Shown here one piece after another: positions 1 through 16,110 of a stretch of 32,000 nucleotides of DNA. Under the pieces are notes generated by a model that worked only from the letters and a program-made list of their open reading frames with translations, was not told the origin of the DNA and searched no databases. The DNA lies in assembly GCA_963521185.1 (NCBI GenBank), contig CAUQTV010000001.1:581081-613080 (forward strand). The letters are read 5' to 3'. The stretch's first letter is position 1. Each line of letters starts with the position of its first letter. A program made the translations under genes and the position numbers. This stretch comes from an uncultured Enterobacter sp. (GTDB taxonomy: Bacteria; Pseudomonadota; Gammaproteobacteria; Enterobacterales; Enterobacteriaceae).

Positions 1-1463
1 GCTGCGCGGTCACCACCGAGCCGGTCGATCGCACCACCAGCCAGCAGCGCGCGCAGGCAGACTTGCAGGCGATGTTCAGTCATCAGGAGCCGGTCAACGG
101 GCCGATAACCTTACAGGAAGCCACCGCCCGCGCGCTGAAGTACAACCTGGAAGCGCGGCTGAAAATCATGGAAACGGCGCTGGCTGAGCAGCAGGTCTCC
201 CTCGCTCGCTTCGATATGCTGCCAAAAATGGCGGCGGACGCAGGCTATGTCACCCGCGATAACGTCAGCGCCTCCAGCAGCCGCAGCGTGCAGTCCGGTG
301 AACAGTCGCTGGAGCCGTCAACCTCGGAGGATAAAACTCGCCGCGTGGCCGATCTCACCATGGTGTGGAACATTCTCGATTTTGGCGTCAGCTACGTGAC
401 CGCGCACCAGCAGTCCGACAAGCGCTGGATAGCCGAAGAGCGCCGCCGCAAAGTCACCCATACCATTGTGCAGGATGTCCAGTCCGCTTACTGGCGCGCG
501 GTGGCGGCAGAGCGCTTGCTCAGTCGCATCGATACCCTGATTGGCCGCGTCAATATGGCGCGTGAAAACAGCGAAAAAATGACCACCCAGCGGGTCGGCG
601 ATCTGGTCGAAGCTTACAGCTACCAGCGTGCTCTGCTCGACGCCACCCGCCAGCTTGAAGAGCAGCGGCGTGCGCTGTCGCTGGCGAAAACCGAACTGGC
701 AACGCTGATGAACCTGCCGCTTGAAACGCACTATACGCTGGCGCTGCCGGATGAAAATAATCTGCCGGAGCCGACGTTAAACATCCCGTTCGAACAGCTT
801 GAGAACACCGCGCTCATCAATCGCCCGGAGCTGCGCGAGGAGGATTACCAGGCGCGGATCAGCGCCGCCGAAACGCGTAAATCCCTGCTGCGCATGCTGC
901 CCGGGATCGAAGTCAACGTGGGCGGCAACTATGACAGTAACTCATTTTTGGTTAACCAGAGCTGGGTGGATGCCGGGGTGAAAGTGACCTGGAATCTGTT
1001 CAACCTCTTCTCCGGCCCGGCGGCGTATGACGTGGCGAAAGCCGGTGAAACCGTGGGCGAGGCGCGTCGCCAGGCGATGTCGATGGCGGTACTGGCGCAG
1101 CTGTACGTGGCGCGTGCAAATTTCAACGAAGCCACCCGTCAGTACCGTACCGGCAAAGAGTTGCAAAAGCTCGACGCCTCTATTCTTGAACAGCTCAACA
1201 ACCGTTATAAAGCAGGCAGCATCGGCGAGCTACAGCTGATTCAGGGCGAGCTTAACGCGGTAAACACCTCGCTGCGTAACGATCTGGCGTATGCCGAACT
1301 GCGTAACGCCTGGGGACAAATCTTCGTCACCGCCGGGCTGGACCCGCTACCGCCGGGGCAGAAAACGTCCGATATCCCGTCGGTGGAACGTGCGCTGCAA
1401 CAGACGGAAAACCAGTGGCAGAGCGGTAGGGTGGCGATGCAAGCGCCGGGAGCCGTACAGTGA
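1..1463 (+). CDS. TolC-family outer-membrane efflux factor, probable lipoprotein (5' end outside window)
   Basis: The frame of the listed ORF (63..1463) stays open back to base 3. Translation from base 3 reads C-A-V-T-T-E-P-V-D..., which fits the +1 Cys of a lipoprotein whose lipobox lies off-window. The rest has the repeated coiled-coil/beta composition of OMF proteins (LKYNLEARL, LDATRQLEEQRRAL, NRPELREEDYQARISAAE, VTWNLFN). The TGA stop at 1461-1463 overlaps the next start (GTGA). Confidence 0.8.
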   Translation, partial: CAVTTEPVDRTTSQQRAQADLQAMFSHQEPVNGPITLQEATARALKYNLEARLKIMETALAEQQVSLARFDMLPKMAADAGYVTRDNVSASSSRSVQSGEQSLEPSTSEDKTRRVADLTMVWNILDFGVSYVTAHQQSDKRWIAEERRRKVTHTIVQDVQSAYWRAVAAERLLSRIDTLIGRVNMARENSEKMTTQRVGDLVEAYSYQRALLDATRQLEEQRRALSLAKTELATLMNLPLETHYTLALPDENNLPEPTLNIPFEQLENTALINRPELREEDYQARISAAETRKSLLRMLPGIEVNVGGNYDSNSFLVNQSWVDAGVKVTWNLFNLFSGPAAYDVAKAGETVGEARRQAMSMAVLAQLYVARANFNEATRQYRTGKELQKLDASILEQLNNRYKAGSIGELQLIQGELNAVNTSLRNDLAYAELRNAWGQIFVTAGLDPLPPGQKTSDIPSVERALQQTENQWQSGRVAMQAPGAVQ

Positions 1464-2254
1464 GCCGAACGCGTGGCAAAGCATGGCTGGCGCTGCTTGC
1501 GATCGCGCCGCTTTACCTGCATGCCGCACCCGCCGCGCAGACGGAGGACGAGCTTACGCTCGATGCGCCGTCAGCACCGGCGGCCACGGGCGGGCGTGAA
1601 GCGCGTGGCGTGCTGCGCGCGGTCGAACAGGCCACGCTCTCCAGCGAGCTGAATGCGCGTATCGTTGAGTTGCCGTTTCGCGAGGGCGAGTCGTTTCATA
1701 AAGGCGATTTGCTGGTGCGATTTGACTGCGCGGCTTACCAGGCGCAGCTTGCCGCGTCGCAGGGGGCCATGCGTGCCGCGCAGCAGGAGCTAAGCCAGAA
1801 CCGGCAGCTTGCGCAAATGCAGTCCGTCGGGCGCACGGCGGTGGGGTTGTCCGAAGCGCGGCTGGCGCAGGCGGCGGCGGAGAGTCAGGTCTACCAGATC
1901 CAGACCAGTCGCTGCCGGGTGCTGGCACCCTTTGACGGCCAGGTGGTATCGCGCAAAGCGCAGGTGTCCGAGTTTTTAGGCCAGGGCATGCCGCTGCTGG
2001 AGATCGTCAACAACAGCCATCTGGAGATTTACCTGCTGGTGCCGTCCCGCTGGCTGTCTACGCTCAAGCCCAAACAGACCTTCACCTTTACACCGGACGA
2101 GACGGGTGAGGCGTTGCAGGCGGAGATCCTGCGCACCGGGGCGAGAATCGACGAGAGCAGCCAGACGCTCACGCTGATTGGCCGCATCACCGGGGCCGGG
2201 GCCGGACTGCTGTCCGGCATGAGCGGCAGTGCGCACTTCACGGAGCCGCAATGA
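1460..2254 (+). CDS. Small periplasmic adaptor (membrane-fusion / HlyD-RND adaptor type) with signal peptide
   Basis: N-terminal signal-like MSRTRGKAWLALLAIAPLYLHAAPAAQ. Lipoyl-hairpin halves (ATLSSELNARIVELPFREGESFHKGDLLVRFD ... RVLAPFDGQVVSRKAQVSEFLGQGMPLLEIV) flank a coiled-coil segment. GTG start overlaps the upstream stop and the stop overlaps the next ATG (ATGA at 2251-2254). Confidence 0.75.
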   Translation: MSRTRGKAWLALLAIAPLYLHAAPAAQTEDELTLDAPSAPAATGGREARGVLRAVEQATLSSELNARIVELPFREGESFHKGDLLVRFDCAAYQAQLAASQGAMRAAQQELSQNRQLAQMQSVGRTAVGLSEARLAQAAAESQVYQIQTSRCRVLAPFDGQVVSRKAQVSEFLGQGMPLLEIVNNSHLEIYLLVPSRWLSTLKPKQTFTFTPDETGEALQAEILRTGARIDESSQTLTLIGRITGAGAGLLSGMSGSAHFTEPQ

Positions 2255-3570
2255 CGAGCGCAGACACCACGAACGCTGAACACATTTTCGCCCGGCTGTT
2301 GCAGCTTGAGCGGCTGGCGCGGCAGGCGGAAAACAGCGAAACCCTGGCCTGGTCGATGGTGAATGACAGCCAGAGCCTGCTCGGCTTTCGTCATGCGGCG
2401 TTGCTGATTGACGGACGCGTGCGGGCGCTGACCGGCGTGTCGGTGCCCGATCCCCATGCGCCGTTTGTCGCCTTCACTGAGCGCGCTGCCCGGCAGGTCG
2501 CGGCGCAGGGGCAGGCGGACAACGTTACCGTGGTCATCGCCGCCTGGCTGGACGAGCAGACCCGCCAGGCGTGGCAAAGCCTGTCTGCGGCGCACGCGCT
2601 GTGGGTCCCGCTGAAAAACCGCAGAGGTGAACGCGTTGGCGGGCTGTGGTTTGCCCGCGATACACAGTGGCAGGAGCATGAACTGCTGCTCGCCGGGCCG
2701 CTGGCTGAGTGCTGGGCCCATGCCTGGCAGGCGTTAGCGCCGCGCCGATCCTGGCGCGCCCGGCGGCTGAAAACCAAAGTGCTAGCGCTCGTGGTTGTGG
2801 TGCTGGTGGCGTTGCTGATCCCGGTGCGCCAGTCGGTGCTGGCCCCGGCGGAAGTGGTGCCGCTGGGCGGCCAGGTGGTGACCGCGCCCCTCGACGGGGT
2901 GATAGCCCAGATAAACGTGCGCCCGAATCAGGTGGTGAAAAAAGGGTTTCTGCTGGCCCAGTTTGACAGCACGGTGCAAAAAGCCCAGGCCGACGTTGCC
3001 GCGCGTGCGCTTGGCGTGGCGGAGGCCGAACTGCGCTCCGGCGCTCAGCGCGCTTTTCAGGACGCGGAGTCGAAAGCCCGGCTGGATCTGCTCGCCGCCC
3101 AGGTGGAGCAAAAACGCGCCGAACTGGCGTGGGCGCAGGATCTGTTGCAGCGCAGCGACGTGCGCGCCGGGCGTGATGGGATCGCGGTGTTTGCCGACGC
3201 CGATCAGCTTGTCGGCAAACCGGTGAGCACCGGCGAGCGGCTGATGGCGATTGCCGACCCGCAACAGGCGGAACTGAAAATTGAACTGGACGTGGGCGAC
3301 GCGATAGATTTCCCCGCCGATGCCGACGTGACGCTGTTTCTCGACAGCGATCCGCTGGTGCGTCACGATGCGCGACTGACCCGCGTGGCCTATGAATCGG
3401 CGCTGACCGCACAGGGTAGCCTGGCGTGGCGGCTTGATGCCCGCTTTATCGACAAAGCCCCGCGCATTGGCCTGCGCGGTACGGCAAAAGTGTATGGTGA
3501 GCGGGTGCCGCTGGCGCTCTATTTGCTGCGTCGTCCGCTGGCAGCGCTGCGTAAAGCGGTGGGCCTGTAA
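2251..3570 (+). CDS. HlyD-family adaptor with about 165-aa cytoplasmic N-terminal domain (GAF-like pattern), one TM helix
   Basis: TM segment VLALVVVVLVALLIPV sits after a soluble N-domain. It is followed by lipoyl-hairpin halves (VVTAPLDGVIAQINVRPNQVVKKGFLLAQFD ... VRAGRDGIAVFADADQLVGKPVSTGERLMAIAD) around a long coiled coil. ATGA overlap upstream and TAATG overlap downstream. Confidence 0.75.
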   Translation: MTSADTTNAEHIFARLLQLERLARQAENSETLAWSMVNDSQSLLGFRHAALLIDGRVRALTGVSVPDPHAPFVAFTERAARQVAAQGQADNVTVVIAAWLDEQTRQAWQSLSAAHALWVPLKNRRGERVGGLWFARDTQWQEHELLLAGPLAECWAHAWQALAPRRSWRARRLKTKVLALVVVVLVALLIPVRQSVLAPAEVVPLGGQVVTAPLDGVIAQINVRPNQVVKKGFLLAQFDSTVQKAQADVAARALGVAEAELRSGAQRAFQDAESKARLDLLAAQVEQKRAELAWAQDLLQRSDVRAGRDGIAVFADADQLVGKPVSTGERLMAIADPQQAELKIELDVGDAIDFPADADVTLFLDSDPLVRHDARLTRVAYESALTAQGSLAWRLDARFIDKAPRIGLRGTAKVYGERVPLALYLLRRPLAALRKAVGL

Positions 3571-5672
3571 TGAGCGTATTGCCCGCACTGCGCGACGATT
3601 TGCAACTGTGCGCCGCTCCGCCCGCGCTCGATGGATCCCCCCAGTGGACGCTGGCTGACACGCTGGCGGGGCGCTATTTCAAACTCAGCGGCAGCGCCAT
3701 GCGCCTGCTGCGCCACTGGGCGCTGGGAGAGGAGGAGCGGGTGCTGGCCGCGGCGAACCGGGAAGCGGGCGTGCCGCTTGGCAGCGACGAAGTGCAGGGG
3801 CTGTTGCGCTTTTTACGCGCCAACGATCTGATCGTCGGCAGCGATAGCGAGCAGCGCGCCAGCTATGGCCTGAAGGCAGCGGCGCGGCGCAAAGGTCTGC
3901 TAACGCAACTGCTGCATCAGTATCTTTTCTTCCGCATTCCGCTCTGGCGTCCCGATCCCTTTCTTAACCGATGCTGGCCGCTACTGGCGCGGCACGGCGG
4001 CTGGCTGCTGCGGTATGGGTTACCGCTCATTGCGATCCTCGGCGGCTATCTGGTGAGCCGCGACTGGCCGCGCTATCGCGATTCATTCTCCTGGCTTTTC
4101 AGCCTGGAAGGGGCGGCGGCCTTTGGCGTGACGCTGGTATTCGCCAAATTTACCCACGAACTGGGGCATGCGTTTATGGCCAGGCGCGCCGGATGCCGGG
4201 TGCAAAGCATGGGCGTGGCCTTCGTGGTGATGTTCCCGATGTTTTACACCGACGTGAGCGACGCCTGGCGCGTGCACTCAACGCGCGCCCGTCTGCTGAT
4301 TGGCGCGGGTGGCATGCTGGCGGAGTTGATGCTGGCGGTCATTGCGCTGCTGGCCTGGTCGCTGTTGCCGGAAGGGCCGCTGCGCACGGCGGCGTTTTTG
4401 CTCTCCAGCGCCACCTGGCTGACCACGCTGGCGGTCAACCTTAATCCGCTGATGCGCTTTGATGGCTATTTTATTCTCAGCGACGCCTGGCAGGTGGATA
4501 ACCTGCAAGGTCGCGCCTTTGCCCTGTGCCGCTGGCGGCTGCGCGAGGCGCTGTTTGGCTATGGCGATCCGCCGCCGCAGCGCTGGTCACCGGGAATGCA
4601 GCGCCGTTTGCTGATCTGGGGTTACGCCTCATGGCTGTGGCGCTTCTTTCTGTTTCTGGGGATCGCGCTGGCGGTGTATCACTTCTTTTTCAAGCTGCTG
4701 GGCCTGTTTCTGATGGCGGTGGAGGTGAGCTGGTTTATCGCACAGCCGATGGTGCATGAATTTCGCCACTGGTGGAAAGAGCGTCAGCGTGCGCAGCCCA
4801 GGCGGGCGATCTGCATCGCGCTGGGTCTGGCGTTCCTGCTGCTGGTGCTGTTTGTGCCCTGGCGCAACCAGATTGCGATCCCCGCGCAGCTCGACGCCGC
4901 CCGCGTCAGCACCCTTTATGCCCCTGTCGCTGCGCAGCTTGTCGCGCTGCATGTGCGTGACGGCCAGACGGTCAGCGCCGGGCAACGCTTGCTGGTGCTG
5001 GAGGCTCCGGATCTGAATGCCCGTCAGGCCATCGCCCGGCAAAAAATCGCGATTTTGCAATTGCAGCTACGCCGGCTTGCCGCCCAGCGAGACACGGTGG
5101 GCGATACGCTGATTTTGCACCAGCAGCTGGCGGAATCGCTGGCGGAGTATCGCGGTCTGGCGGCGCAGCGGCGCAGGCTGGAGATCCGCGCGCCCTGGGC
5201 CGGGCAGGTGCGCGATGTGGAGCAGGATCTGGCCCCCGGCCGCTGGCTGGCTGCGGACCAGCCGCTGTTGCGCGTGGTCAATGCCGGTGCCGGACGCATT
5301 CGCGGCTATTTGCCGGAAGATGCGCTTAGTGCCATCCAGCCTGCGGCGACAGGGCGCTTTATTGCCGACGATCCCAGTCGGGCGGCGCAGGCGGTGCGCG
5401 TGCAGTCCATCGATCCCACCGCCTCGGCGTTTATTGAGCGAGAAGCGCTGACCTCCGATCACGGCGGCCCGGTGGCGGTGCGCCGGGACGGGCAAAAACG
5501 GGCGCGACCGGTTCAGGCCTGGTACGGCGTGGACATCGTCGTGACCGACAACGCAGCATTTCCGCCGCAGCCCCTGCGGGGTGTGGTGGTCATTAACGGC
5601 AAGGCAGAATCTCTGTTTACCAGCGTCTGGCGTCGCATTGCCGTGCTGGGCATCAGAGAGAGTGGTTTTTAG
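3570..5672 (+). CDS. Peptidase M50 (site-2-protease family) zinc metalloprotease fused to C-terminal HlyD-like adaptor domain
   Basis: HELGH (HExxH) at residues 196-200 (nt 4155-4169). Second M50 motif NLNPLMRFDG with Asp298 (nt 4461-4463). Several hydrophobic helices. C-terminal third has lipoyl-hairpin halves (TLYAPVAAQLVALHVRDGQTVSAGQRLLVLEAPDL ... EIRAPWAGQVRDVEQDLAPGRWLAADQPLLRVV) around a coiled coil. The first roughly 90 aa resemble a PqqD/RRE-like winged helix. Confidence 0.8.
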   Translation: MSVLPALRDDLQLCAAPPALDGSPQWTLADTLAGRYFKLSGSAMRLLRHWALGEEERVLAAANREAGVPLGSDEVQGLLRFLRANDLIVGSDSEQRASYGLKAAARRKGLLTQLLHQYLFFRIPLWRPDPFLNRCWPLLARHGGWLLRYGLPLIAILGGYLVSRDWPRYRDSFSWLFSLEGAAAFGVTLVFAKFTHELGHAFMARRAGCRVQSMGVAFVVMFPMFYTDVSDAWRVHSTRARLLIGAGGMLAELMLAVIALLAWSLLPEGPLRTAAFLLSSATWLTTLAVNLNPLMRFDGYFILSDAWQVDNLQGRAFALCRWRLREALFGYGDPPPQRWSPGMQRRLLIWGYASWLWRFFLFLGIALAVYHFFFKLLGLFLMAVEVSWFIAQPMVHEFRHWWKERQRAQPRRAICIALGLAFLLLVLFVPWRNQIAIPAQLDAARVSTLYAPVAAQLVALHVRDGQTVSAGQRLLVLEAPDLNARQAIARQKIAILQLQLRRLAAQRDTVGDTLILHQQLAESLAEYRGLAAQRRRLEIRAPWAGQVRDVEQDLAPGRWLAADQPLLRVVNAGAGRIRGYLPEDALSAIQPAATGRFIADDPSRAAQAVRVQSIDPTASAFIEREALTSDHGGPVAVRRDGQKRARPVQAWYGVDIVVTDNAAFPPQPLRGVVVINGKAESLFTSVWRRIAVLGIRESGF

Positions 5673-5703
5673 TTCGCCTCAACCCTCATTAAGGAAACAC
5701 CTG

Positions 5704-6375
5704 ATGAACAGACGTGCAAAATCCTCATTATGTCTCGTTGCCTCCGGTCTGCTTGTGTTCTCTTTTTCATCGCACGCGCTGGCCTGCGGTGATGGAGATC
5801 CCTACATCGGATCGGTGTGCTTCAACGTTGCGCCTTATTGTCCCGATCTCTATCTTGAGGCCGCCGGACAGTCGGTGAACATCTCTGATTACCAGGCGCT
5901 TTATGCGCTGATTGGCACCACCTACGGCGGTACGACAACGACCTTTATGCTACCGGATCTGCGCGGGCGTGCGCCGGTCGGGCAAGGAACCGGGCCAGGG
6001 CTTACGGCGGCGGTACAGGGCCAGCCTCGCGGTGCGGAAAGCGTGACGCTAAACGCGTCGAACCTGCCGCCGCACGCCCACGCGGGCACCTTTACCCCCG
6101 GCAGCGGATCGGCGCTGTCATTTAACGCCACCAGCAACGCGGCGACATCAGCAACGCCAACCGCTGCGGCCAACCAGTTGAGCACCTCAGCCGGACCGGC
6201 GGTGAAAATGTATGCCCCGTCGGGCGGCACGCAGGTTCCCCTGGCGGGCGTGGGTGGCGCGGCGATCACCGTACAGCCTGCCGGATCGGGTTCCGCCGCC
6301 GTGCCGGTTGTTTCACCGCAGTCGGTACTCAAAGCCTGTATCGCGGTCAACGGTGTTTTCCCCACCCAGTCATAA
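5704..6375 (+). CDS. Exported phage-tail-collar-domain (MdpB-like) protein, paralog 1
   Basis: ATG at 5704 lies 8 nt after AAGGA (5691-5695); the listed GTG at 5581 would overlap the upstream gene. Signal peptide ends ALA|C. Collar-domain motifs YQALYALIGTTYGG..F.LPDLRGRAPVGQGTGPGL, then RGAESVTL..NLPPHAH and C-terminal PQSVLKACIAVNGVFP. Confidence 0.8.
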   Translation: MNRRAKSSLCLVASGLLVFSFSSHALACGDGDPYIGSVCFNVAPYCPDLYLEAAGQSVNISDYQALYALIGTTYGGTTTTFMLPDLRGRAPVGQGTGPGLTAAVQGQPRGAESVTLNASNLPPHAHAGTFTPGSGSALSFNATSNAATSATPTAAANQLSTSAGPAVKMYAPSGGTQVPLAGVGGAAITVQPAGSGSAAVPVVSPQSVLKACIAVNGVFPTQS

Positions 6376-6402
6376 TGCCACTTATTGATAAGGATCAGAC
6401 TC

Positions 6403-7080
6403 ATGAACTGTTCTTTGACCTCTCCGCTCACCCTGACGGCCTGCGCCCTGGCGCTGCTCTCTGCGTCTCCTAATGTGCTGGCGTGCAGTGTCGATCCCTA
6501 CGTGGGTGCGGTGTGCTTTATGGCAACGAGCTTCTGCCCGCGCGGCTATGTGGAAGCTAACGGCCAGCAGATGGCGGTCCAGCAATCGCAGGCGCTGTAC
6601 TCGCTCATTTCGCGGGTGTATACCCCGTCCTCCACCGGTAATACCGCCTTTAACCTGCCCGATCTGCGCGGCAGAAGCCCGGTGGGTATGGGTGTCGAAG
6701 CCAACGGAACCGTGCTGACGCAGGGGCAAATGCGCGGTGCGGAAACCGCCGTTATGGATCTCTCGAACATGCCGCCCCATAGCCACCAGGCGGCACCCGG
6801 TACGGCGGCGTTTTCCCTGAGCGCGACGAGCAATGCCGGCACCTCCACTGGCCCGGCGACGGCCACCAACCAGTTAGCTGCCGCAAGCGGCCCGGCGACA
6901 AAAATCTACGCCCCAGCGGGAGGCACGCAAATTCCGCTGGCGGGGGTGAACGGCGCTCTGACCGGGGCGACGGTGGCGGTGAGCAATACGGGCCAGGCGG
7001 TGCCTTTCGCCACGCTGACACCGCAGACGCCACTGCGCGCCTGCGTGGCGGTGATGGGCATTTATCCGCGAAGACCTTAG
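6403..7080 (+). CDS. Exported phage-tail-collar-domain (MdpB-like) protein, paralog 2
   Basis: ATG at 6403 lies 8 nt after AAGGA (6390-6394). Signal peptide ends VLA|C. Motifs SQALYSLISRVY...FNLPDLRGRSPVGMG, RGAETAVMDLSNMPPHSH and C-terminal PQTPLRACVAVMGIYP. Confidence 0.8.
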   Translation: MNCSLTSPLTLTACALALLSASPNVLACSVDPYVGAVCFMATSFCPRGYVEANGQQMAVQQSQALYSLISRVYTPSSTGNTAFNLPDLRGRSPVGMGVEANGTVLTQGQMRGAETAVMDLSNMPPHSHQAAPGTAAFSLSATSNAGTSTGPATATNQLAAASGPATKIYAPAGGTQIPLAGVNGALTGATVAVSNTGQAVPFATLTPQTPLRACVAVMGIYPRRP

Positions 7081-7132
7081 CGGGTGCGCGAACGAACCTC
7101 TTTTTTCACCACAGTGATATAAGGAACAGGCA

Positions 7133-7807
7133 ATGAAAACCTCTCTTTCTCTGGTGGTTGCGACAACAGCGTTACTGGCTTTCTCGTCCGGCGCACAGGC
7201 GTGCGAAGGCGAGGGCGAGTTTATCGGCGCGGTGTGCTTTACGGCGGCGACCTTCTGCCCGTCGGGTTATCTTGACGCGAACGGGCAAACCGTACTCGTC
7301 AATCAGTTTCAGGGGCTTTACAGCCTGGTGGGCAATCACTATGGCGGTACGCCGGGTGTTAACTTTACGCTGCCGAATCTGCAAGGCTTCAGCCCGGCGG
7401 GGCAGGGAACGGGGCCGGGGCTAACTAACGCTGCGCAATACAGTACGCGCGGCGCAGAGAGCCAAACGCTGACTCAGGCGCAGCTTCCTGCCCATACGCA
7501 TACGGCGACGCTCAATCCCACCGCGACCGGCCTTAGCGTAAATGCCAGCACCAGCCCTGGGGCGAATGCCGCGCCGTCCGCGGCCAATAACCAACTGGCG
7601 ACGGCGACGCCAAACGCAAAAATCTATGCGCCAGCCAGCACCGGTAGCGATACGGTTCCGCTTGCCGGGCTTGCGGGCGGTATCGCCGGGGCGGCTGTGG
7701 CGCTGGCGACCACCGGCGGCGGCATGCCAATAACGACGGTTTCTCCACAGCTGGTGCTGAAAGCCTGTATCGCTTACGACGGCGATTATCCGGTTAACCC
7801 GAATTAA
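7133..7807 (+). CDS. Exported phage-tail-collar-domain (MdpB-like) protein, paralog 3 (divergent DLRGR motif)
   Basis: ATG preceded by AAGGAACAGG. Signal peptide ends AQA|C. Motifs FQGLYSLVGNHYGG...FTLPNLQGFSPAGQGTGPGL, RGAESQTLTQAQLPAHTH and C-terminal PQLVLKACIAYDGDYP. Confidence 0.8.
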   Translation: MKTSLSLVVATTALLAFSSGAQACEGEGEFIGAVCFTAATFCPSGYLDANGQTVLVNQFQGLYSLVGNHYGGTPGVNFTLPNLQGFSPAGQGTGPGLTNAAQYSTRGAESQTLTQAQLPAHTHTATLNPTATGLSVNASTSPGANAAPSAANNQLATATPNAKIYAPASTGSDTVPLAGLAGGIAGAAVALATTGGGMPITTVSPQLVLKACIAYDGDYPVNPN

Positions 7808-7820
7808 CCCTCAGCAAATC

Positions 7821-7848
7821 GTCACGCCAGGCGCTTCTCTGGCGTGAC
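7821..7848 (+). terminator. 10-bp stem hairpin downstream of the tail-collar genes (no U-tract)
   Basis: GTCACGCCAG (7821-7830) pairs with CTGGCGTGAC (7839-7848) around an 8-nt loop, 14 nt after the stop at 7807. There is no T-run, so terminator function is uncertain. Confidence 0.35.
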
Positions 7849-8038
7849 AGGATATGTCACGCGAAGGGATCACTAAAAAGAATACGCCAGAAATGGCTTG
7901 TTATTCAGCGGCTTGTGATAAGCGAATTATTATGCCCCCTGGCCTGAAATTCATCCGTTACGTTGACATATCCTGACACCGACACCCCGCATAATATCCC
8001 CACAAAACAACAAACTGACATCAAAAGGACTTCGGGAC

Positions 8039-8761
8039 GTGAAGAAGCCTCACACTCGCCATGACCGACTGGCGGTGCGCTTATCGGTGATGATAAGTCG
8101 CTTGCTGGCCGGGGAAACGCTCAATCTGGGTGCGCTTGCGGAGGAGTTCGGTGTTTCTGAGCGCACTTTGCAGCGCGATCTGCATGAGCGGCTTTTGCAT
8201 CTCGATCTCATTCATCACAACGGTCACTACAGCATGCCGGGCAACCGCATTCGCCAGCACTCCCCAGATATTCTGACCTTTACGCGTAATACCGGGATTG
8301 CGGCGGTATTCCCCGGTCAGCACCGCAGACTGGTGAATACGATAGCCGCCAGTAAAGACATGCAGCCATGCGTGATTTCGCTGCCGGAACTGCGTTTTTC
8401 CGCCACCGTGGCGGACTGTTTTCACCGACTGCTGCTGGCCATTACACAGAGTCGCCGCATCATTTTATTTACCGACGGCGAACAGTACGTCAGCACGGAA
8501 CCTTACCAGCTTATTTTCCAGAAAGAGGCCTGGTATCTGGTGGCGTGGTGCCAGGACGCCGTGCAGGTTTTTGCGCTCGACGATATCGACGCGGTGATTG
8601 TGATGGAGCAGGTCTTCAGCCGACGCCGGGATATTAGCGCGCTGGCGGCGCAGGCGCGTTTTATTGCCGCACTTCCGTATTTCCGCGTTATTCATGAGGT
8701 GCAGGCGACGCTGAATCAACACGGTGATGGCTTCGATAAACGAAACCAGAAATATTTGTAA
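8039..8761 (+). CDS. HTH + WYL-domain transcriptional regulator
   Basis: N-terminal DeoR/YafY-type HTH (LNLGALAEEFGVSERTLQRDLHE). Central WYL signature (PYQLIFQKEAWYLVAWCQDAVQVFALDDI). GTG start 9 nt after AAGGA. Confidence 0.8.
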   Translation: MKKPHTRHDRLAVRLSVMISRLLAGETLNLGALAEEFGVSERTLQRDLHERLLHLDLIHHNGHYSMPGNRIRQHSPDILTFTRNTGIAAVFPGQHRRLVNTIAASKDMQPCVISLPELRFSATVADCFHRLLLAITQSRRIILFTDGEQYVSTEPYQLIFQKEAWYLVAWCQDAVQVFALDDIDAVIVMEQVFSRRRDISALAAQARFIAALPYFRVIHEVQATLNQHGDGFDKRNQKYL

Positions 8762-8798
8762 ACCTCGCCACGCGCTTATTTAAGATGAGAATGTCACG

Positions 8799-9089
8799 AT
8801 GCACACTTCCGAATCCCGCCCTCTGACGCCCGTAGAGAGCTGGCAGAAATTATTAACCTGGCTACTGGCCAAACATTATGGACTGGCGCTCAGCGAAACG
8901 CCTTTTGACGATCCGGCGGTTATTGGCGGCTATATTGATGCTGACGTGTCGCTGGTGGATGCCCTCAATGAATGGGTTAAGTGCGTAGCGATCACGCGCA
9001 TTGATACGCCCCCGTTCCACTGGCGGGAACCCACGCCCTATATCGAACTTATCGATATTTTGCAGGCGCAGCAGTGGGTGAAATTGTAA
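8799..9089 (+). CDS. CbtA/YeeV/YkfI-family (type IV TA) toxin-like protein, short form
   Basis: SRPLTPVESWQKLLTWLLAKHYGLALSETPFDDPAVIGGYIDADVSLVDALNEWV..ITRID lines up by eye with E. coli CbtA [54 protein letters not shown]..LVRTD. It is shorter at both ends than the 124-aa CbtA. Confidence 0.7.
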   Translation: MHTSESRPLTPVESWQKLLTWLLAKHYGLALSETPFDDPAVIGGYIDADVSLVDALNEWVKCVAITRIDTPPFHWREPTPYIELIDILQAQQWVKL

Positions 9090-9141
9090 GAAAAGGGTGG
9101 CTGGTAGGGGTTATAGCATGGAGGACATTTACTCCCCCGCT

Positions 9142-9600
9142 TTATGATTCCATAACGATCGGCGCAACACCCTCATTTGTGCGGATCCAACGCGGCGCGA
9201 TCATTTCGGCAGTGAAGTATTCGACCAGTTCTGCCAGCAAACTGCTGAGCTGTTTTTTCATTATTTCGGGGATTTCGTCGTAGTGTAAAAGTTGGGTAAG
9301 CGTGAGGCAGTAGCGGCACAGCGAATCGGCGTCAGGGGCGAAGCGCGGGAACGTGTCGGGCAAGGTATTTACGGTCAGACTGTCGCGCAAATGCAACGGG
9401 ATGGGATCGAAGAGGTCCGCCTGAATCAGCTTCAGTACCGCGGCCAGGCGGGCGTAGAACGCCAGTTTCAGCTCAGGATCGTCGCATTCAATCTGGGCAA
9501 TAGCGAGTTCCTCGCACAGCTTCGCAAGCGTAGTGAAATCGGTATCGGCATTGAAGGGAACACAAAGTAACGGGTGTGCGTTGACGAGGATCGTAGCCAT
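9142..9600 (-). CDS. Hypothetical acidic protein (152 aa), no family recognised
   Basis: Long ORF with balanced codon usage, convergent with the cbtA-like gene and divergent from the xre-RES pair. I recognised no motifs. Confidence 0.5.
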   Translation of the reverse strand: MATILVNAHPLLCVPFNADTDFTTLAKLCEELAIAQIECDDPELKLAFYARLAAVLKLIQADLFDPIPLHLRDSLTVNTLPDTFPRFAPDADSLCRYCLTLTQLLHYDEIPEIMKKQLSSLLAELVEYFTAEMIAPRWIRTNEGVAPIVMES

Positions 9601-9829
9601 AGGGACAGCCTGTACCTGATTTGCGAATGCGTGAGAAGCATACTGTGACAGGAGATGGCTGACAATTGTAATGAGGATAAATGCGGCGAGCTACGCAGAA
9701 GTGGAAAATAGCGCCCTGAAACTAAAAATCCATGCAGGGTGGGGGAAAAGAAAGTCTGCGATCCTTTTTGAAGGTTATGGCGGATATGATATTATTAAAT
9801 CATTCCAATAACCCATGCGGGAGAGCGTC

Positions 9830-10504
9830 ATGCGTGTCCAGAAAGTGCAATCTGGGGTTTCCACCCTGACTGGAACCCCGGAAGAAGTGCGTAACAGGCT
9901 CGGTAAATCACATGCCGATCACGTGCTGGTCGTCAGTTTCGAGCACCTGAGTCCTTCCGGGTCAAAAATATTTATTGAAAATCTGTCCAGCGTGGCGTCG
10001 TCCATGTTTGGGCTGCTTCAGGAACAGCAGAGTCGCAACTCGCTACAGCGTCTGGCGGATGCACTGGTGCCGCGTACACCAGCGCCACCCCGGCTTATCA
10101 GAGAAACAGCCATGCTGGTTAAGGCGCGCAAAGCCGTTCTGGACAGTGGTGACTGGCTGAGCGCTGCCGAACTGGCACAGTTGGCGCAGCTGAGCACCAC
10201 CAATCCGAGCGCTCAGCCGAACAAATGGAAGAAGAACGGACACATCTTCGCGATTCACCACAACGGTGTTGATTACTTCCCCGGCTATGGCCTGGACAGG
10301 GATGCGAATTTCCGGCCTCTGAAAACGATGGCTCAGGTGATCGAGGTGTTTGACGGCCATAAAGACGGATGGGGGATGGCCTTCTGGTTTCTCTCGGCCA
10401 ACAGCTTCCTTGGTGGGAAACGACCGCAGGACTTACTTGCTACAGACCCTGAGCGGGTGATCGCGGCAGCCATGGATGAAGTTCAGGGTGTCGAGCATGG
10501 CTAA
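9830..10504 (+). CDS. Xre/MbcA/ParS-type antitoxin (C-terminal DUF2384 toxin-binding domain), long form
   Basis: C-terminus WFLSANSFLGGKRPQDLLATDPERVIAAAMDEV is the DUF2384 signature. It sits immediately upstream of, and overlaps, a RES-domain gene. ATG 9830 is preferred over 9815 because GGGAGAG (9819-9825) lies 4 nt upstream. Confidence 0.75.
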   Translation: MRVQKVQSGVSTLTGTPEEVRNRLGKSHADHVLVVSFEHLSPSGSKIFIENLSSVASSMFGLLQEQQSRNSLQRLADALVPRTPAPPRLIRETAMLVKARKAVLDSGDWLSAAELAQLAQLSTTNPSAQPNKWKKNGHIFAIHHNGVDYFPGYGLDRDANFRPLKTMAQVIEVFDGHKDGWGMAFWFLSANSFLGGKRPQDLLATDPERVIAAAMDEVQGVEHG

Positions 10505-11204
10505 GCGTCCTGTCAGGGCAAAGGGTGTCCCTGAGCAACCGGAGCAGGAGGAGGCGGGAACTACGCCACTGCCTCAACCCGGTCCCCTTAAAACCACAAC
10601 ACTGTCAGTGAGTGCAGGAACAGTGTTGCACCGCGTCCATCAGGAGCAATGTGCGGCCGACCAGTTCAACCCGGGTGTCAAAGGCAACGCGCGTTTTAGC
10701 CCCATCCGGAATGCGGAGGGCGGCACCATCCCGACCCTGTACGCAGGCCTGACCAGGGAGTGCGCCATGATGGAGACCGTCTTTCACGATGTGCCTTTTG
10801 CGCCAGGGCTTAAAACGTACGATAAAAGCAAACTGGACGGGCAGTTGCACTCGACGCTGATGGTCACCGACGATCTGGAGTTACTGGATCTGACCAGTAT
10901 CTCGTTGCGCAAACTGGGTATCACCCGCAAGCAGTTGATCGATACGGAGAAGGATCAGTATCCCAATACCCGCAAATGGGCCGAGGCGTTGCATCAGCAG
11001 TGCCCGACGGCACAGGGGTTATCCTGGGTCTCCAGGCAGGATGACACCACGCGGGCCATGGTACTGTTTGGCACTCGGGTTTCTGTGCAGGCACTTCGTC
11101 CCACAGGCGAGTCGCTTAGTCTGGTCAATGACACCGCCACCTACGATGCTGTGCTCGATTTGGCTGAGAGGCTGGATGTGCTGATTGTCCCGGGTAAAGA
11201 CTGA
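10497..11204 (+). CDS. RES-domain toxin (MbcT/ParT-like NAD+-targeting family)
   Basis: R-E-S landmarks are GNARFSP, RECAMMETVFHD and GLSWVSRQDD. ATG 10497 overlaps the antitoxin stop (ATGGCTAA, 8-nt overlap); the listed start at 10476 is the alternative. Confidence 0.85.
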   Translation: MAKRPVRAKGVPEQPEQEEAGTTPLPQPGPLKTTTLSVSAGTVLHRVHQEQCAADQFNPGVKGNARFSPIRNAEGGTIPTLYAGLTRECAMMETVFHDVPFAPGLKTYDKSKLDGQLHSTLMVTDDLELLDLTSISLRKLGITRKQLIDTEKDQYPNTRKWAEALHQQCPTAQGLSWVSRQDDTTRAMVLFGTRVSVQALRPTGESLSLVNDTATYDAVLDLAERLDVLIVPGKD

Positions 11205-11476
11205 GCCGATTGTCACGTTGCAGCGGCGATGCGCTTAGCCAGCCTTAAGGGCGTATGCGTCCATCAGTTGAACTCACAGCGAACAACCGACGTTACGTGT
11301 ATAAGTGAAAAAGTGCTGATTTTTCATTCAAGCCCTGTTAACTTGAATGACAATGAAAACACACTCATTTCTATTCCATTCAATTATTATCACCTGTCTG
11401 ACTCAGGTGGGATAACGTTCGCCATTTTCCCGCCGGTAAGGCGGGCCTTACCGGAAATTATCTAGTGAGGTAAACA

Positions 11477-11983
11477 ATGGACACCGCTACAGTAACAACG
11501 TCAGAAAAACCTACTTTGCACCTGTTATGTGGAAAAATTGCATCTGGGAAATCCACACTGTCAGCAAAGCTGGGATCATCACCTGGCACCGTAATTGTCA
11601 GTGAGGATCTTTGGCTGGCTGCTCTCTTTGCTAAAGAAATGCATTCCATATCTGATTATGTTCAGTATTCCTCAAGGCTGAGAAATGCTATGAAACCTCA
11701 TCTGGTGTCACTACTCAAAGCTGGTTTATCAATAGTTCTTGATTTCCCGGCAAACACACAAACAAATCGTGAATGGATGATGAGCATCATTAAGGAGTCA
11801 GGTGCTTGTAACCAACTGCACTATCTCAAAGTATCTGATGAAGTATGTAAATCCCGCTTACGCGCTCGTAACGCAGAAGGAGAACATGAATTTTCCGCTT
11901 CAGATCAACAATTTGAAATCATAACGCGTTATTTCTCAGAACCAAAAGCTGATGAAGGGTTTAATATTATAGAATACAGCTGA
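11477..11983 (+). CDS. P-loop NTPase / small kinase-like ATP-binding protein (AAA_33-like)
   Basis: Walker A CGKIASGKST near the N-terminus. About 170 aa, typical of small nucleotide or antibiotic kinase-like proteins. RBS GTGAGG upstream. Lies in the AT-rich context. Confidence 0.7.
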   Translation: MDTATVTTSEKPTLHLLCGKIASGKSTLSAKLGSSPGTVIVSEDLWLAALFAKEMHSISDYVQYSSRLRNAMKPHLVSLLKAGLSIVLDFPANTQTNREWMMSIIKESGACNQLHYLKVSDEVCKSRLRARNAEGEHEFSASDQQFEIITRYFSEPKADEGFNIIEYS

Positions 11984-12090
11984 ATCCATCTTTATGAACA
12001 TAAGCCGTCTGCTGGCGGCTTTACAGCCTGGGCGCGGAGCGGATAGGTACGCTGGTCTTTAGCGGCTGTAAACAACCTACAGGGTGACTC

Positions 12091-12300
12091 TCAGAGTGAA
12101 TTTCTGCGCTTCCACTCATCCACCACATCACCTAAGTTTTTTGGTACATCATTTCTTATCCAGGCCATAAACGCACGATCAAATTTAAAGTTCGGACCAC
12201 ATTCATCAATCATGAAACGACGAACATTTTGTGTATTTTTGTAGTTGTTATCCACGAAAGTGGTGCGATCTAAAGAAGAACCATGCCAGTCTGTTTTCAT
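12091..12300 (-). CDS. Small protein, DUF6434-like
   Basis: 69-aa ORF with YKNTQNVRRFM...FKFDRAFMAWI, a pattern I associate with DUF6434 proteins. Assignment is from memory only. Confidence 0.45.
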   Translation of the reverse strand: MKTDWHGSSLDRTTFVDNNYKNTQNVRRFMIDECGPNFKFDRAFMAWIRNDVPKNLGDVVDEWKRRNSL

Positions 12301-12671
12301 TTATTTATTCCTAAAAACAAGTGTAGTAGCCTAAAGCTATCATACTAACTTTTGATATGTCCGCACCTGGCACACAGAGAACATCCAGGCCTCTCCGGTC
12401 ACGGCATGAAGGGCAGAAAATCCAGAACAAGGCGGGCATTTTCTCAACCGCAACTGCGCAGAGACATCACTGATGCTCGCAAACCTTTATGGTGCCAGTG
12501 GGTGCCTGTCGAAGATTGGCCGGCAAACCCGCCCGGTTAAGTCATTCCTGCTGGCTGCGCGGAATCTTGCATGCCAATATGATGTGCTACATGCTTATAC
12601 CTTACAATTTATGCGACAGTTTTGCTAAACGCCCTAAAATTGAAGCTCAGCCAGATGTACGGAGTCTACTC

Positions 12672-13157
12672 ATGTGGGAAAAATTTATAATCAAAAACTT
12701 CAACAAAGTTAAAGATGTTAATTTCAAGAGAGCACCGCTCTATGAGTCAGAAGGTGGATCTCTTACCTCTGGCACTTTGGCGATAAAACTCGGAGCATCT
12801 GTTGACACTCTTCCCCCAGGCAAAAGATGTTCACCTTTTCATTTTCATCATGTTCAGGAAGAAATGTTTATCGTTTTAAAAGGCAATGGAACATTGAGAA
12901 TCGCAGATGAGATGGTTGAGATAGAGGAAGGGGACGTTATATGTATTCCCCCTGGAGAGGCATACCCACATCAAATCATAAATACTTCATCCTTGCCACT
13001 TACTTATATGTCTGTGAGTACCATGGAGACGCCCGAGGTCTGTGAGTATCCAGACTCAAATAAATATTTAGTTAAATCAACTAACCAGAAAGAACAGGGG
13101 TTTAGAGTCGCAGATTTCAGGAGCAGAGGGGTGGATTATTGGGAGGGTGAGCCTTGA
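12672..13157 (+). CDS. Cupin-domain protein
   Basis: Cupin motifs are FHFHHVQEEMFIVLKGNG and GDVICIPPGEAYPHQIIN. ATG 12672 is preceded by GGAG (12661-12664). The listed upstream extension from 12489 has no cupin-like sequence. Confidence 0.75.
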   Translation: MWEKFIIKNFNKVKDVNFKRAPLYESEGGSLTSGTLAIKLGASVDTLPPGKRCSPFHFHHVQEEMFIVLKGNGTLRIADEMVEIEEGDVICIPPGEAYPHQIINTSSLPLTYMSVSTMETPEVCEYPDSNKYLVKSTNQKEQGFRVADFRSRGVDYWEGEP

Positions 13158-13476
13158 TTCAAAAAATACCGTTTCCATTTCTATCACTAGTAACATCCGC
13201 TCTTGGCTCGGAGCAGAAATGCGCGCCCAGCAATGTCCGCTGTGAGCGAGGTATAGTCATTCGTACCCTGAGAATTACACTTTGAAGTGATTCAGGGTAT
13301 GCGCTTACTGGTTACGAATATTGAGCGAGAATCATGTGATGATCGCCGCTTTTCTTTCGAACCAGTAGGTGCTCCACGTTCGCTAACGAATACTCAGGGC
13401 ATGCAGATAAACTGCTGGCTATATTTCTTTCGAAGAGCGTGGAATGCATACCAATCCCCGATAAAAGGAGTTGGTG

Positions 13477-14715
13477 ATGACTGCGACTAATTAATTTGCT
13501 GCACATGTTGGTCTGGACTGGGCAGATAAAAAACACGATGTATGTGTTCAGTTTAAAAACGGTGAACGCGTATTCCATGTGATTGAACATACAGCAGAAG
13601 CGCTTGATGCCTGGCTTACCGAGTTACACCAGAAGGTAAAAGGCAGGATCGCTATAGCTCTCGAGCTGAAGAAGGGACCCGTGGTGTATGCTCTTCAGAA
13701 ATATCCGTTTATCACCGTTTTCCCCGTCCACGCTTTGTCCCTGGCTCGTTACCGGCAAGCCTTCTCGCCCAGCGGAGCTAAAGATGACCCGCAGGATGCC
13801 GAGCTGGCATTAGAGTTAATGCTGCGTTATCCCCAAAAGATAAAAGCCATTGAACTCGACAATGCGGATATCCGGTTACTCCAGCAACTGGTTGAGCAGC
13901 GTCGTCAACTGGTTGAAGATAAACGACGTTTCGTGAACCGGCTAATCAACACGCTTAAACAGTATTATCCTCAGCCACTGGAGTGGTTCTCACATCGGGG
14001 TAGCTTGCTGTTGTGTGAACTGATTATACGGTGGCCCAGTCTGCAACAACTCAAACGCGCCAGGCGCGATACAATCCGCGACTTTCTCAATGCTAAAGGT
14101 GGCCGCGCAATGGCTCTTACCGAGCAGCGTGTGGTGAGTATTGATAACGCGATCCTATTGACGACAGACCCGAGTGTTATAGAGGCTAATGCTTTGATGG
14201 CAACAGCACTGGCGACACAAATTAAAGTCGTGAGTGAAATAATCAAAACCTATGACGAACGAATCGAAACGCTGTTTGACACATTGCCGGATGCGGTGCT
14301 GTTCAAATCACTTCCGGGCATGGGGCCGTGTATGGGCCCACGAATGCTTGCTGCACTTGGTGATAACCGTGACCGGTTTAACAACGCTGAAGAAATTCAA
14401 AACTACGCAGGTATTGCACCGGTGACAGAACGAAGTGGCCAGAAATCCTGGGTTCACTGGAGATGGCAGTGTGCGAAGTTCGTCAGGCAGACATTTGTTG
14501 AATGGGCTGCCAGGACGGTTAACTCATCATACTGGGCCAAACTTTATTACCAGGGCCAGCGAGACAAAGGGAAATCGCATCAATCAGCCATCCGGGCTCT
14601 GGCGTTTAAATGGATAAGGATCATTTACCGCTGCTGGAAGACCAGAACCCGCTACGACGAAGCAAAATATTTGCTGGCACTCGAAGCGCGACGCTCGCCC
14701 TTACTTAGGCCATAA
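13477..14715 (+). mobile_element. IS110-family insertion sequence, transposase gene region (minimum extent, element ends not determined); frame interrupted by TAA at 13492-13494
   Basis: AAAAGGAG (13463-13470) followed by ATG 13477 reads M-T-A-T-N-stop. The same frame then continues F-A-A-H-V-G-L-D-W-A-D-K-K-H-D-V-C-V... into the listed ORF. GLDWADKKHD matches the N-terminal GIDxxK motif carrying the first DEDD aspartate. Confidence 0.7.
13579..14715 (+). CDS. IS110-family transposase, longest intact ORF (lacks N-terminal catalytic Asp segment)
   Basis: Typical IS110/IS1111-type sequence: LKSLPGMGPCMGPRMLAALGD...AGIAPVTERSGQKSWVHWRW.C.KFVRQTF.EWA...YY..QR.KGKSH..AIRALAFKWIRIIYRCW. The GTG start is simply the first start codon after the in-frame stop. 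Confidence 0.8.
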   Translation: MIEHTAEALDAWLTELHQKVKGRIAIALELKKGPVVYALQKYPFITVFPVHALSLARYRQAFSPSGAKDDPQDAELALELMLRYPQKIKAIELDNADIRLLQQLVEQRRQLVEDKRRFVNRLINTLKQYYPQPLEWFSHRGSLLLCELIIRWPSLQQLKRARRDTIRDFLNAKGGRAMALTEQRVVSIDNAILLTTDPSVIEANALMATALATQIKVVSEIIKTYDERIETLFDTLPDAVLFKSLPGMGPCMGPRMLAALGDNRDRFNNAEEIQNYAGIAPVTERSGQKSWVHWRWQCAKFVRQTFVEWAARTVNSSYWAKLYYQGQRDKGKSHQSAIRALAFKWIRIIYRCWKTRTRYDEAKYLLALEARRSPLLRP

Positions 14716-14978
14716 AAGCTTGTCGAATGTCTCAGGGCGTGAAGCGGACAATGCTAACAGCATTCTGTGTGAATCAATAGGGAGCATGTCATGTTAATCA
14801 ACAACGATATATTTTCTCCATATGCACGTTCAAGTTCATTGCGTCAGTAAACTATATAATTGCTAACGATGATAAGTATAATTATATAAGCCTTTGCCCT
14901 TAGCTTTTGAATAATTTTGTTGAAGTTTCACGAAAATAATGATAAACAAAAAAAGTAGCAATAATTAAGGATTTAATT

Positions 14979-15911: not shown

Positions 15912-16110
15912 CGTTACGTTTTGATTGAAATAACCCCATTTTGCAAGGTCCGCTCCTGGCACGCACCGGACCTCTCGAATGAGTTCTATCCTCGGTATTC
16001 ACTAAGTGCAATAAATTCTAATCGGATTCTACAACCCATTTGTCCAGCATATCAGCCCAACCCTGTACTCATTTTAACCGCGTTGTTATGAGATGAGTTG
16101 AGGCACTATA

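Follow-up and report, generated by a model that had tools for sequence, protein, structure and literature searches.

Three tandem tail-collar paralogs with predicted signal peptides and paired cysteines end a TolC, adaptor and M50 protease operon in an uncultured Enterobacter sp.

Three genes that stand in tandem on the forward strand of a 32,000-nucleotide stretch of DNA from an uncultured Enterobacter sp. (contig CAUQTV010000001.1, positions 581,081 to 613,080; the window hereafter) encode small proteins of the tail-collar (Collar) family that appear to be exported. Collar paralog 1 (P1; 5704-6375, + strand, 223 amino acids) begins with a predicted signal peptide (5704-5784), and its mature form would start at Cys28 (codon at 5785). 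Paralog 2 (P2; 6403-7080, + strand, 225 amino acids) has its predicted signal peptide at 6403-6483 and the Cys28 codon at 6484, and paralog 3 (P3; 7133-7807, + strand, 224 amino acids) has its own at 7133-7201, followed by the Cys24 codon at 7202. They form the 3' end of an operon that also encodes a TolC-like lipoprotein, two adaptors (MFP1 and MFP2) and an M50 protease fused to an adaptor (M50-MFP). This context, which the initial annotation of the three genes missed, is their most informative feature.

The first operon gene (1-1463, + strand) encodes an outer-membrane factor of the TolC/OEP family (Pfam OEP, E 1.7e-38) and is truncated 5' by the start of the window. Frame 3 opens at the lipoprotein cysteine, where CAVTTEPVDR aligns with ...LAVSG|CAVSTKQVDR of the Kosakonia orthologue, to which the protein is 95% identical in amino acids; because the window begins at this cysteine, the TTG start at 63 in the program-made list of open reading frames is an artefact. 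MFP1 (1460-2254, + strand) matches HlyD_3 at E 7e-16 and TIGR01730 RND_mfp at 112.5 bits (cut-off 94.9); its N-terminus, VSRTRGKAWLALLAIAPLYLHA|AP, is signal-peptide-like by eye, and a 19-residue hydropathy scan flagged nothing. MFP2 (2251-3570, + strand; HlyD_3, E 1e-10) has about 170 residues, then a single hydrophobic segment (174-192) and a HlyD-type domain, an arrangement that suggests a cytoplasmic N-domain and a periplasmic HlyD part. M50-MFP (3570-5672, + strand, 700 amino acids) joins an intramembrane M50 (site-2-type) metalloprotease (Peptidase_M50, E 6e-7) to a C-terminal HlyD-type adaptor (HlyD_3, E 6e-13), with HELGH at residue 196, NLNPLMRFDG at 290 and a hydrophobic segment at 413-431. 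These genes overlap or abut (1460/1463, 2251/2254 and 3570), and 27-52 nucleotides separate the Collar genes from M50-MFP and from one another. The operon has no ABC transporter gene, and no promoter-like or terminator-like site was found on the + strand within 5400-8200. A perfect 10-base-pair inverted repeat (7821-7848, + strand; GTCACGCCAG/CTGGCGTGAC) lies 14 nucleotides past the P3 stop, has no T-run, and may mark the operon end as a terminator or serve as a protein-binding site; a second repeat at 7842-7862 overlaps it.

All three paralogs exceed the 24-bit gathering cut-off of Pfam Collar PF07484 (P1, E 3e-18, 65.9 bits; P2, 1e-15, 57.9 bits; P3, 2e-14, 53.5 bits) and are 42-49% identical to one another. 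An NCBIfam search of the three gave no match, nor did a megablast search of window positions 1-8000 against E. coli genomes. Each gene has an AAGGA-type ribosome-binding site 6-8 nucleotides 5' of its ATG. For P2 this site stands 7 nucleotides upstream of the ATG at 6403, and the annotated start of the Kosakonia orthologue is also an ATG; the open reading frame list instead starts P2 at TTG 6385. That in-frame TTG, 18 nucleotides 5' of the ATG (6385-6402), is without a ribosome-binding site and would add MIRIRL, a basic n-region. Public annotation labels relatives of the trio genes 'tail fiber protein', and homologues in public data are labelled 'microcystin-dependent protein'.

The sequence details reported by the initial annotation are all present. 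The N-terminal hydrophobic peptides end in HALA|C (P1), NVLA|C (P2) and GAQA|C (P3), and each mature protein has exactly four cysteines (residues 28, 39, 46 and 212 in P1), the later ones set in GSVCF/GAVCF, YCP/FCP and KACIA/RACVA. YLEAAG, YVEANG and YLDANG, that is Y-(L/V)-(E/D)-A-(A/N)-G, stand at the position of the classical W-x-x-C-(D/N)-G motif, and an Ala/Thr/Gly/Ser-rich variable middle with the islands NQL, K(I/M)YAP and PLAG runs through all three paralogs. Of the family-invariant motifs, namely YGG, LPDLRGR, PxHxH and a G(I/V)(F/Y)P strand at the C-terminus, P1 has the full set. The last two occur in every paralog, PxHxH reading PHAH, PHSH and AHTH. P2 has YTPSST where the invariant YGG stands, and P3 reads LPNLQGFSPAG, with Phe at an Arg position kept in 93 of 94 homologues. 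Because the same gene order and the four cysteines occur in three other genomes (loci L001, L089 and L090) at 52-73% identity, the shared features of the trio reflect homology and not chance.

A database search with P1 returned 1313 homologues, of which 120 were inspected; an alignment of 94 sequences was used for cysteine patterns. The inspected proteins were of three kinds: leaderless proteins that start M-x-(P/E)-(F/Y)-(I/L)-G and carry N-F-A-P-x-G-W-x-x-C-(D/N)-G; proteins with a signal-like extension whose cysteines stand only in 'FCP' and the C-terminal 'AC(I/V)'; and proteins with such an extension and all four cysteines. Among the 94 aligned sequences, all four cysteines occur in 44, only Cys3 and Cys4 in 22, none in 21, Cys4 alone in six and another pattern in one. 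Cys2 never appears without Cys1, nor Cys3 without Cys4, and the classical WxxC cysteine is found in 24 of the 27 sequences that lack Cys3 versus one of the 67 that have it. When signal-like extensions were called by heuristic hydrophobicity and charge cut-offs in 93 homologues, the extension came with both pairs in 39 and with pair 2 only in 22, and 25 had neither extension nor pairs; of the seven exceptions, five miss only these cut-offs and are signal-peptide-like by eye. Put differently, 61 of 63 homologues flagged for an extension carry cysteine pairs, and 25 of 30 unflagged ones are without pairs. On a heuristic reading, the trio proteins themselves show the n-h-c organisation of signal peptides, with 12-15 hydrophobic residues and small residues at -3 and -1 (A-x-A).

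Because the signal-like extension and the cysteine pairs appear and vanish together, this covariation supports export of the trio by Sec, with a signal peptide that would be cleaved off, and the presence of two disulfides, putatively C28-C39 and C46-C212 in P1 numbering, the pairing being drawn from cysteine co-occurrence only. It is the pattern that would be expected if a move to an oxidising compartment had driven the gain of two disulfides. Periplasmic export with two disulfides was what the initial annotation had proposed, on the understanding that cysteines not conserved in orthologues would undercut it, and all 12 proteins of the four known trios retain the four cysteines.

The position of a cysteine directly after the predicted cleavage site raises the question of lipidation, which the initial annotation had called ambiguous because the sites are poor lipoboxes. 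The latter point stands, in that the canonical lipobox [LVI][ASTVI][GAS]C is absent from all three (P1 A-L-A-C, P2 V-L-A-C, P3 A-Q-A-C); P3 is also, as was said, the only one of the trio to fit what we take to be the permissive PROSITE lipoprotein pattern. The ambiguity itself narrows towards proteins that are not lipidated. Across the subfamily the residues before the cysteine (ALAC, AQAC, VFAC, VLAC, SHAC, AAAC, VNAC) are A-x-A-like with a free -2 position that is often bulky or polar (Q, H, N, F, L), and in some members a cysteine lies at +2 (AQA|TC, AEA|NC, SHA|CC). Because there is no canonical lipobox, A-x-A sites are typical of signal peptidase I and the cysteine can stand at +2, the +1 cysteine of the trio is very probably a disulfide partner and not a lipidation site. 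Among longer P1 homologues, P0016, P0019, P0030 and P0072 carry PEP-CTERM-like C-terminal sorting signals (e.g. VPEPASAALALACLLGLARRRR). The Collar family would then appear to have at least three localisation modes, namely leaderless, Sec with disulfides, and PEP-CTERM.

With the 94-sequence alignment as input, an AlphaFold2 monomer model of mature P1 reached a mean predicted local distance difference test score (pLDDT) of 83 and a predicted template-modelling score (pTM) of 0.60. Searched with Foldseek against the PDB, it matches the receptor-binding domain of T4 gp12 (1ocy; E 4e-5 over 203 aligned columns), the tail fibre of cyanophage A-1(L) (8kec; E 6e-5) and the tip of T4 gp37 (2xgf; E 1e-2). 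Predicted models of viral tail-collar or fibre proteins give a further 78 matches at E<1e-3. The root-mean-square deviations against the solved structures are high, as expected when a monomer model is compared to chains of intertwined trimers. An alignment of the family profile with 8kec (E 6e-10) starts in the Collar domain, takes in lPxHxH and reaches the last strand, and PxHxH is kept in at least 90% of homologues. Phage fibre-tip proteins such as T4 gp12 and that of A-1(L) are trimers, and the HxH histidines of T4 gp12 reportedly bind metal on the three-fold axis. Because all solved relatives are trimers, a trimer is the plausible default expectation for the trio proteins, which is in keeping with the trimeric assemblies that the initial annotation had envisaged as possible. 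The homotrimer is likely the ancestral state, since most related loci have a single Collar gene; a 1:1:1 heterotrimer of P1, P2 and P3, in line with the heteromeric assemblies suggested by the initial annotation, is possible.

The operon recurs well beyond the window. A Kosakonia cowanii plasmid carries the same seven genes at 80% nucleotide identity, preceded by a gene for a giant immunoglobulin-like (Ig-like) protein, and Pectobacterium parvum has, in order, a giant DUF4347/Big_12 protein, the OEP-family protein, two adaptors, M50-MFP and one exported Collar protein. When species-representative genomes were scanned with a profile of M50-MFP, 267 relatives emerged, so that the core of two adaptors and M50-MFP appears to recur in at least 267 species genomes. 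Linkage was counted in the best 80 of these 267 loci, which come mostly from Pseudomonas and its allies, with Enterobacterales and Tolumonas in addition, and in which M50-MFP is 60-79% identical (best segment). MFP2 and M50-MFP are found in 80 of the 80 loci and MFP1 in 79; one or two Collar genes lie within 1-9 kb in 68, or in 68 of the 76 whose downstream sequence extends to 6 kb or more; and a giant DUF4347 protein is encoded in 72. TolC was detected in about 20 of the 80, mostly 3' of the giant gene, and many loci end short of the region past that gene. No conserved ABC exporter was found in the related loci; ABC-like open reading frames occur in only 21 of 80, where they are distant and not syntenic. 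Our literature search found no description of this gene set.

In 68 loci the giant DUF4347/Big_12 proteins share an N-terminal leader, MWWxK...(basic)...SP(M/L)I(M)SLEPRM(L/M)FDGAVAAT (for example L005:15675-15800, L039:15740-15860 and L016:13486-13700), which by eye has no long Sec-type hydrophobic core. It may belong to a 'LEPR-XLL' N-terminal domain family, a membership that NCBIfam did not confirm: a search of the giant-protein N-termini and of DUF6916 gave no match. The M50 protease may recognise this leader or cleave at it. Many Pseudomonas loci (L005:12112-14876, L006:12116-16423 and many of L010-L086) have extra genes between M50-MFP and the giant gene, encoding a GNAT acetyltransferase, DUF6916 (beside the Collar gene), a sulfotransferase, an Asp/Arg beta-hydroxylase and a PMT_2 glycosyltransferase, which suggests modification of the giant protein; the pairing of DUF6916 with Collar recalls RhiA-RhiB and MrpA-MrpB.

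The Collar partner is not the same lineage in every locus. Exported-type Collar proteins are found in Enterobacterales loci (the window, L001, L002, L009, L016, L027, L064, L089 and L090), and a partial Tolumonas copy (L008) keeps the C-terminal cysteine; most of the Collar proteins of Pseudomonas loci, which are leaderless, have the classical WxxC(N/D)G motif. In a rough neighbour-joining tree, leaderless and exported Collar proteins fall in separate clades, and the window trio, the Kosakonia trio and single-copy Pectobacterium and Enterobacter genes form one sub-clade of the exported group. Because the locus appears to have kept a Collar partner while exchanging the Collar lineage and even its export mode, these comparisons argue for a real functional link between Collar and the machine. 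One locus labelled Leclercia tamurae (L066, OZ240079.1), whose 7.1-Mb genome is unusually large for Leclercia, is of the Pseudomonas type with leaderless Collar genes, and its label may be wrong. In a metagenome-assembled genome of Azonexus sp. (L087:7431-16475), an exported four-cysteine Collar gene lies directly 5' of a giant gene (2518 amino acids) whose N-terminus is DUF4347-like by eye, with no Pfam hit on record and no LEPR leader. No M50-adaptor machine was found within 8 kb of this Collar gene, and the pairing of Collar with a giant protein may be older than the linkage to the machine. The other neighbour of the Azonexus Collar gene encodes a cysteine-rich secreted protein of 178 amino acids.

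Three Collar genes in the same order directly 3' of M50-MFP occur in four genomes, namely the window, K. cowanii and the metagenomic loci L089 and L090. The four trios show clean 1:1:1 orthology, with 52-73% identity within and 42-54% between groups, and duplication inside the Enterobacterales form of the locus gave rise to the trio. In each of the four genomes paralog 2 reads YTPS(S/A)T where YGG would stand, and paralog 3 has Phe or Tyr in place of the otherwise nearly invariant Arg in three of the four. This 1:1:1 retention, with each copy keeping conserved deviations of its own, shows that the three copies are not redundant. The deviations would suit a heterotrimer, in which some chains could do without some motifs, and would suit three specialised homotrimers just as well.

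Selection was gauged from the ratio of nonsynonymous to synonymous substitution rates (dN/dS; Nei-Gojobori) between the window and the K. cowanii plasmid orthologues, a coarse test in that dS is about 1 and near saturation. The ratios are 0.03 for the TolC-like gene, 0.08 for MFP1, 0.12 for MFP2 and 0.09 for M50-MFP, and 0.16, 0.22 and 0.18 for Collar 1, 2 and 3, so that the pace of evolution in the Collar genes is roughly double that of the machine genes, and purifying selection is indicated. By region the Collar ratios span 0.12-0.60, dS being undefined for the middle of paralog 1; dN is highest in the low-complexity middle of paralogs 2 and 3 (0.35 and 0.29 versus 0.18 and 0.14 in the Collar part). 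The diversifying surfaces that the initial annotation had suggested are not supported at this resolution, as the ratio is 0.16-0.22 overall and at most 0.6 in every region with an estimable dS.

On balance, we consider it somewhat probable that the trio proteins, as Sec-exported, disulfide-bearing relatives of fibre tips, are accessory partners of a giant adhesin-like protein at the cell envelope. Sec would export the precursors, and signal peptidase I would cleave them behind A-x-A, which leaves a cysteine at +1. Two disulfides would form in the periplasm by a DsbA-type route, with C28-C39 as a local N-terminal pair and C46-C212 stapling the N-terminal 'FCP' loop to the C-terminal strand. Judging from fold similarity, trimers would then assemble around the conserved PxHxH as in the phage relatives, the three copies supplying either the chains of one heterotrimer or three homotrimers of different specificity. 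They would most likely serve as a binding, anchoring or tip subunit beside the giant protein, which the machine of TolC, adaptors and M50-MFP would handle, and they are probably not cargo that crosses TolC already folded. Since the M50 domain resembles the leader proteases of ribosomally synthesised and post-translationally modified peptides (RiPPs), it is, speculatively, a reasonable candidate for processing the LEPR leader.

A more ambitious version of this model, which we offer only tentatively and regard as rather doubtful as a whole, would make the locus a previously undescribed, envelope-spanning export or anchoring system without an ATPase, composed of the TolC-like lipoprotein, two adaptors, M50-MFP, the LEPR-leader giant and Collar trimers. 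In such a system the giant protein's leader might be recognised or removed by the M50 protease while the three adaptors provide a bridge to TolC, and the gp12-like Collar trimers might form a surface anchor or binding tip; the trimers of Enterobacterales would be exported by Sec, disulfide-bonded and triplicated, possibly as a 1:1:1 heterotrimer.

Several observations weigh against the accessory-partner model. The n-region of P2 (MNCSLTSPL) is without Lys or Arg, unlike the basic n-regions of P1 and P3. The Collar proteins of Pseudomonas loci not only lack a leader (e.g. MEVFMGTIQPFAFNFAPSGWALCNGQ) but have none of the four exported-type cysteines. They would start in a different compartment, which is hard to square with one fixed role unless the machine exports those copies. 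Leaderless Collar proteins would either be exported by the machine itself or have a role that differs between lineages. Exported Collar genes occur in Kordiimonas (three) and Methylocystis (one) with neither machine nor giant gene there. In eight informative loci the machine and the giant protein occur without a Collar gene, so that Collar is dispensable for the machine. Finally, the giant gene lies outside the window, and we infer its presence upstream from the closest relatives (L001, L007 and L089), in which it stands immediately 5' of the TolC-like gene.

Alternatively, the Collar proteins may be the cargo, brought to the periplasm by Sec and then released through adaptors and TolC as lectin-, adhesin- or bacteriocin-like trimers, in essence the secreted assemblies that the initial annotation had suggested. 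The trio lies directly 3' of, and is probably co-transcribed with, the TolC, adaptor and M50-MFP genes, the linkage recurs in 68 of 80 loci, and some TolC pumps do accept periplasmic substrates, as MacAB-TolC does enterotoxin STII. The TolC duct is too narrow, however, for a trimeric fibre tip that is already folded and disulfide-bonded, and because passage of such a trimer is unlikely we rank cargo below partner. The giant LEPR-leader protein is also linked to the machine slightly more often than Collar is (72 versus 68 of 80), eight loci have it without a Collar gene, and the Pseudomonas partners have no signal peptide. A cargo role thus seems unlikely to us.

It is more improbable still that the genes are leftovers of prophage tail fibres, or an unrelated periplasmic lectin set hitch-hiking beside a transporter on a mobile island. 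The 'tail fiber protein' label in public annotation would fit such an origin, as would the island-like region (G+C content of about 0.63-0.66, then 0.39-0.54, with an IS110 element and a toxin-antitoxin pair), an integrase in the Kosakonia plasmid and the exported Collar genes without a machine in Kordiimonas and Methylocystis. Yet neither the window nor any annotated locus viewed contains a further phage structural gene, such as one for baseplate, tail tube or assembly chaperone, and we know of no phage fibres that carry Sec signal peptides. Linkage to M50-MFP spans Enterobacterales, Pseudomonadales and Tolumonas with different Collar lineages, which argues for selection on the linkage, and the Collar genes appear to be under purifying selection. 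A prophage origin taken by itself was rejected, there being no phage genes nearby and the neighbours being transporter genes, a WYL regulator, the toxin-antitoxin pair and IS110. Least probable, and by our estimate very improbable, is that the +1 cysteines are lipidated to give three membrane-anchored lipoproteins: a cysteine does follow the hydrophobic peptide directly in all three and P3 fits what we take to be the PROSITE pattern, but the trio has no canonical lipobox, -2 is often Q, H, N, F or L, the cysteine stands at +2 in some members, the +1 cysteine occurs only together with Cys39 as a disulfide partner would, and a true lipobox does occur in this operon, in the TolC-like protein (AVSG|C as read in its Kosakonia orthologue).

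In regard to known systems, the trio proteins resemble T4 gp12 and the A-1(L) fibre over nearly the whole mature protein, in sequence and in fold, with the Collar domain (LPD(L/M)RG) followed by PxHxH and the C-terminal strand. Unlike these phage proteins, they stand alone at about 196 amino acids when mature, have no fibre shaft and are encoded in a transporter operon and not in a phage; their Sec-type signal peptide and four cysteines set them apart from the phage proteins and from leaderless cellular homologues alike. Bacterial genomes encode many cellular tail-collar proteins, which annotation usually labels as phage tail proteins, and to our knowledge no molecular function has been demonstrated for the MdpB/RhiB-like ones. 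The trio belongs with these cellular MdpB or 'microcystin-dependent protein' Collar proteins (COG4675), including MrpB and RhiB, being of the same Pfam family and similar size. The sampled leaderless MdpB-type members have no signal peptide and read W-x-x-C-(D/N)-G, whereas the trio has Y-x-(E/D)-A-x-G, a signal peptide and two putative disulfides. The trio proteins are thus members of the Collar/MdpB family that appear to be distinct in being exported, cysteine-stapled and triplicated. In the literature on cellular Collar proteins, the only context we found is the relationship between MrpB of Microcystis and RhiB of the Rhizobium leguminosarum rhiABC genes (PMC3328848).

The machine likewise invites comparison with systems that it matches in part. 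Type I secretion exports giant adhesins (LapA, SiiE and RTX adhesins) through an ABC transporter, a HlyD adaptor and TolC, and the present loci similarly encode an outer-membrane factor and HlyD-type adaptors beside a giant protein with Ig-like repeats. They have no conserved ABC transporter, the component that defines type I secretion, and they differ further in having three adaptor-type proteins, one of which is joined to an M50 intramembrane protease, and in the conserved LEPRMxFDGA leader at the N-terminus of the giant protein. The N-terminal half of M50-MFP matches the M50 proteases of RiPP systems, YydH/LiaK and daptide HExxH (E 3e-38 and 3e-9), and keeps HExxH and NxxPxxxxDG, but it scores far below the equivalog cut-offs (131.9 versus 300 bits and 36.9 versus 225 bits) and is thus not a member of either family, and no peptide precursor or radical-SAM gene lies near it. 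The fusion of a protease to an export component recalls the peptidase-containing exporters, in which leader cleavage is coupled to export, with the difference that the fusion partner here is a periplasmic adaptor and not an ABC transporter. A gene set with no ABC, RND or MFS component may represent an unrecognised route by which giant surface proteins are exported or anchored. It is present in many Pseudomonas and in plant-associated Enterobacterales, where such adhesins affect colonisation. The repeated linkage of different Collar lineages to one gene set gives an orphan family a functional context that can be tested, and a large Collar subfamily, with its signal peptide and two covarying cysteine pairs, appears to be built for the periplasm.

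Downstream of the operon, G+C content falls from about 0.63 to 0.39-0.54 over window positions 8039-16000. This part begins with a regulator gene of the WYL/helix-turn-helix (HTH) type (8039-8761) and holds a RES-domain toxin gene (10476-11204) that overlaps an upstream open reading frame (9815-10504), which may encode its antitoxin, and an IS110 transposase gene (13579-14715). Further genes there encode an AAA_33 kinase-like protein, a cupin and a GIY-YIG protein. Since the fall in G+C content coincides with the RES toxin and IS110, with housekeeping genes beyond them, the operon lies at the edge of an island-like stretch. The sequence that follows includes, on the - strand, the housekeeping gene pth (17388-17972) and a gene for a SulP/STAS permease (18712-20391).

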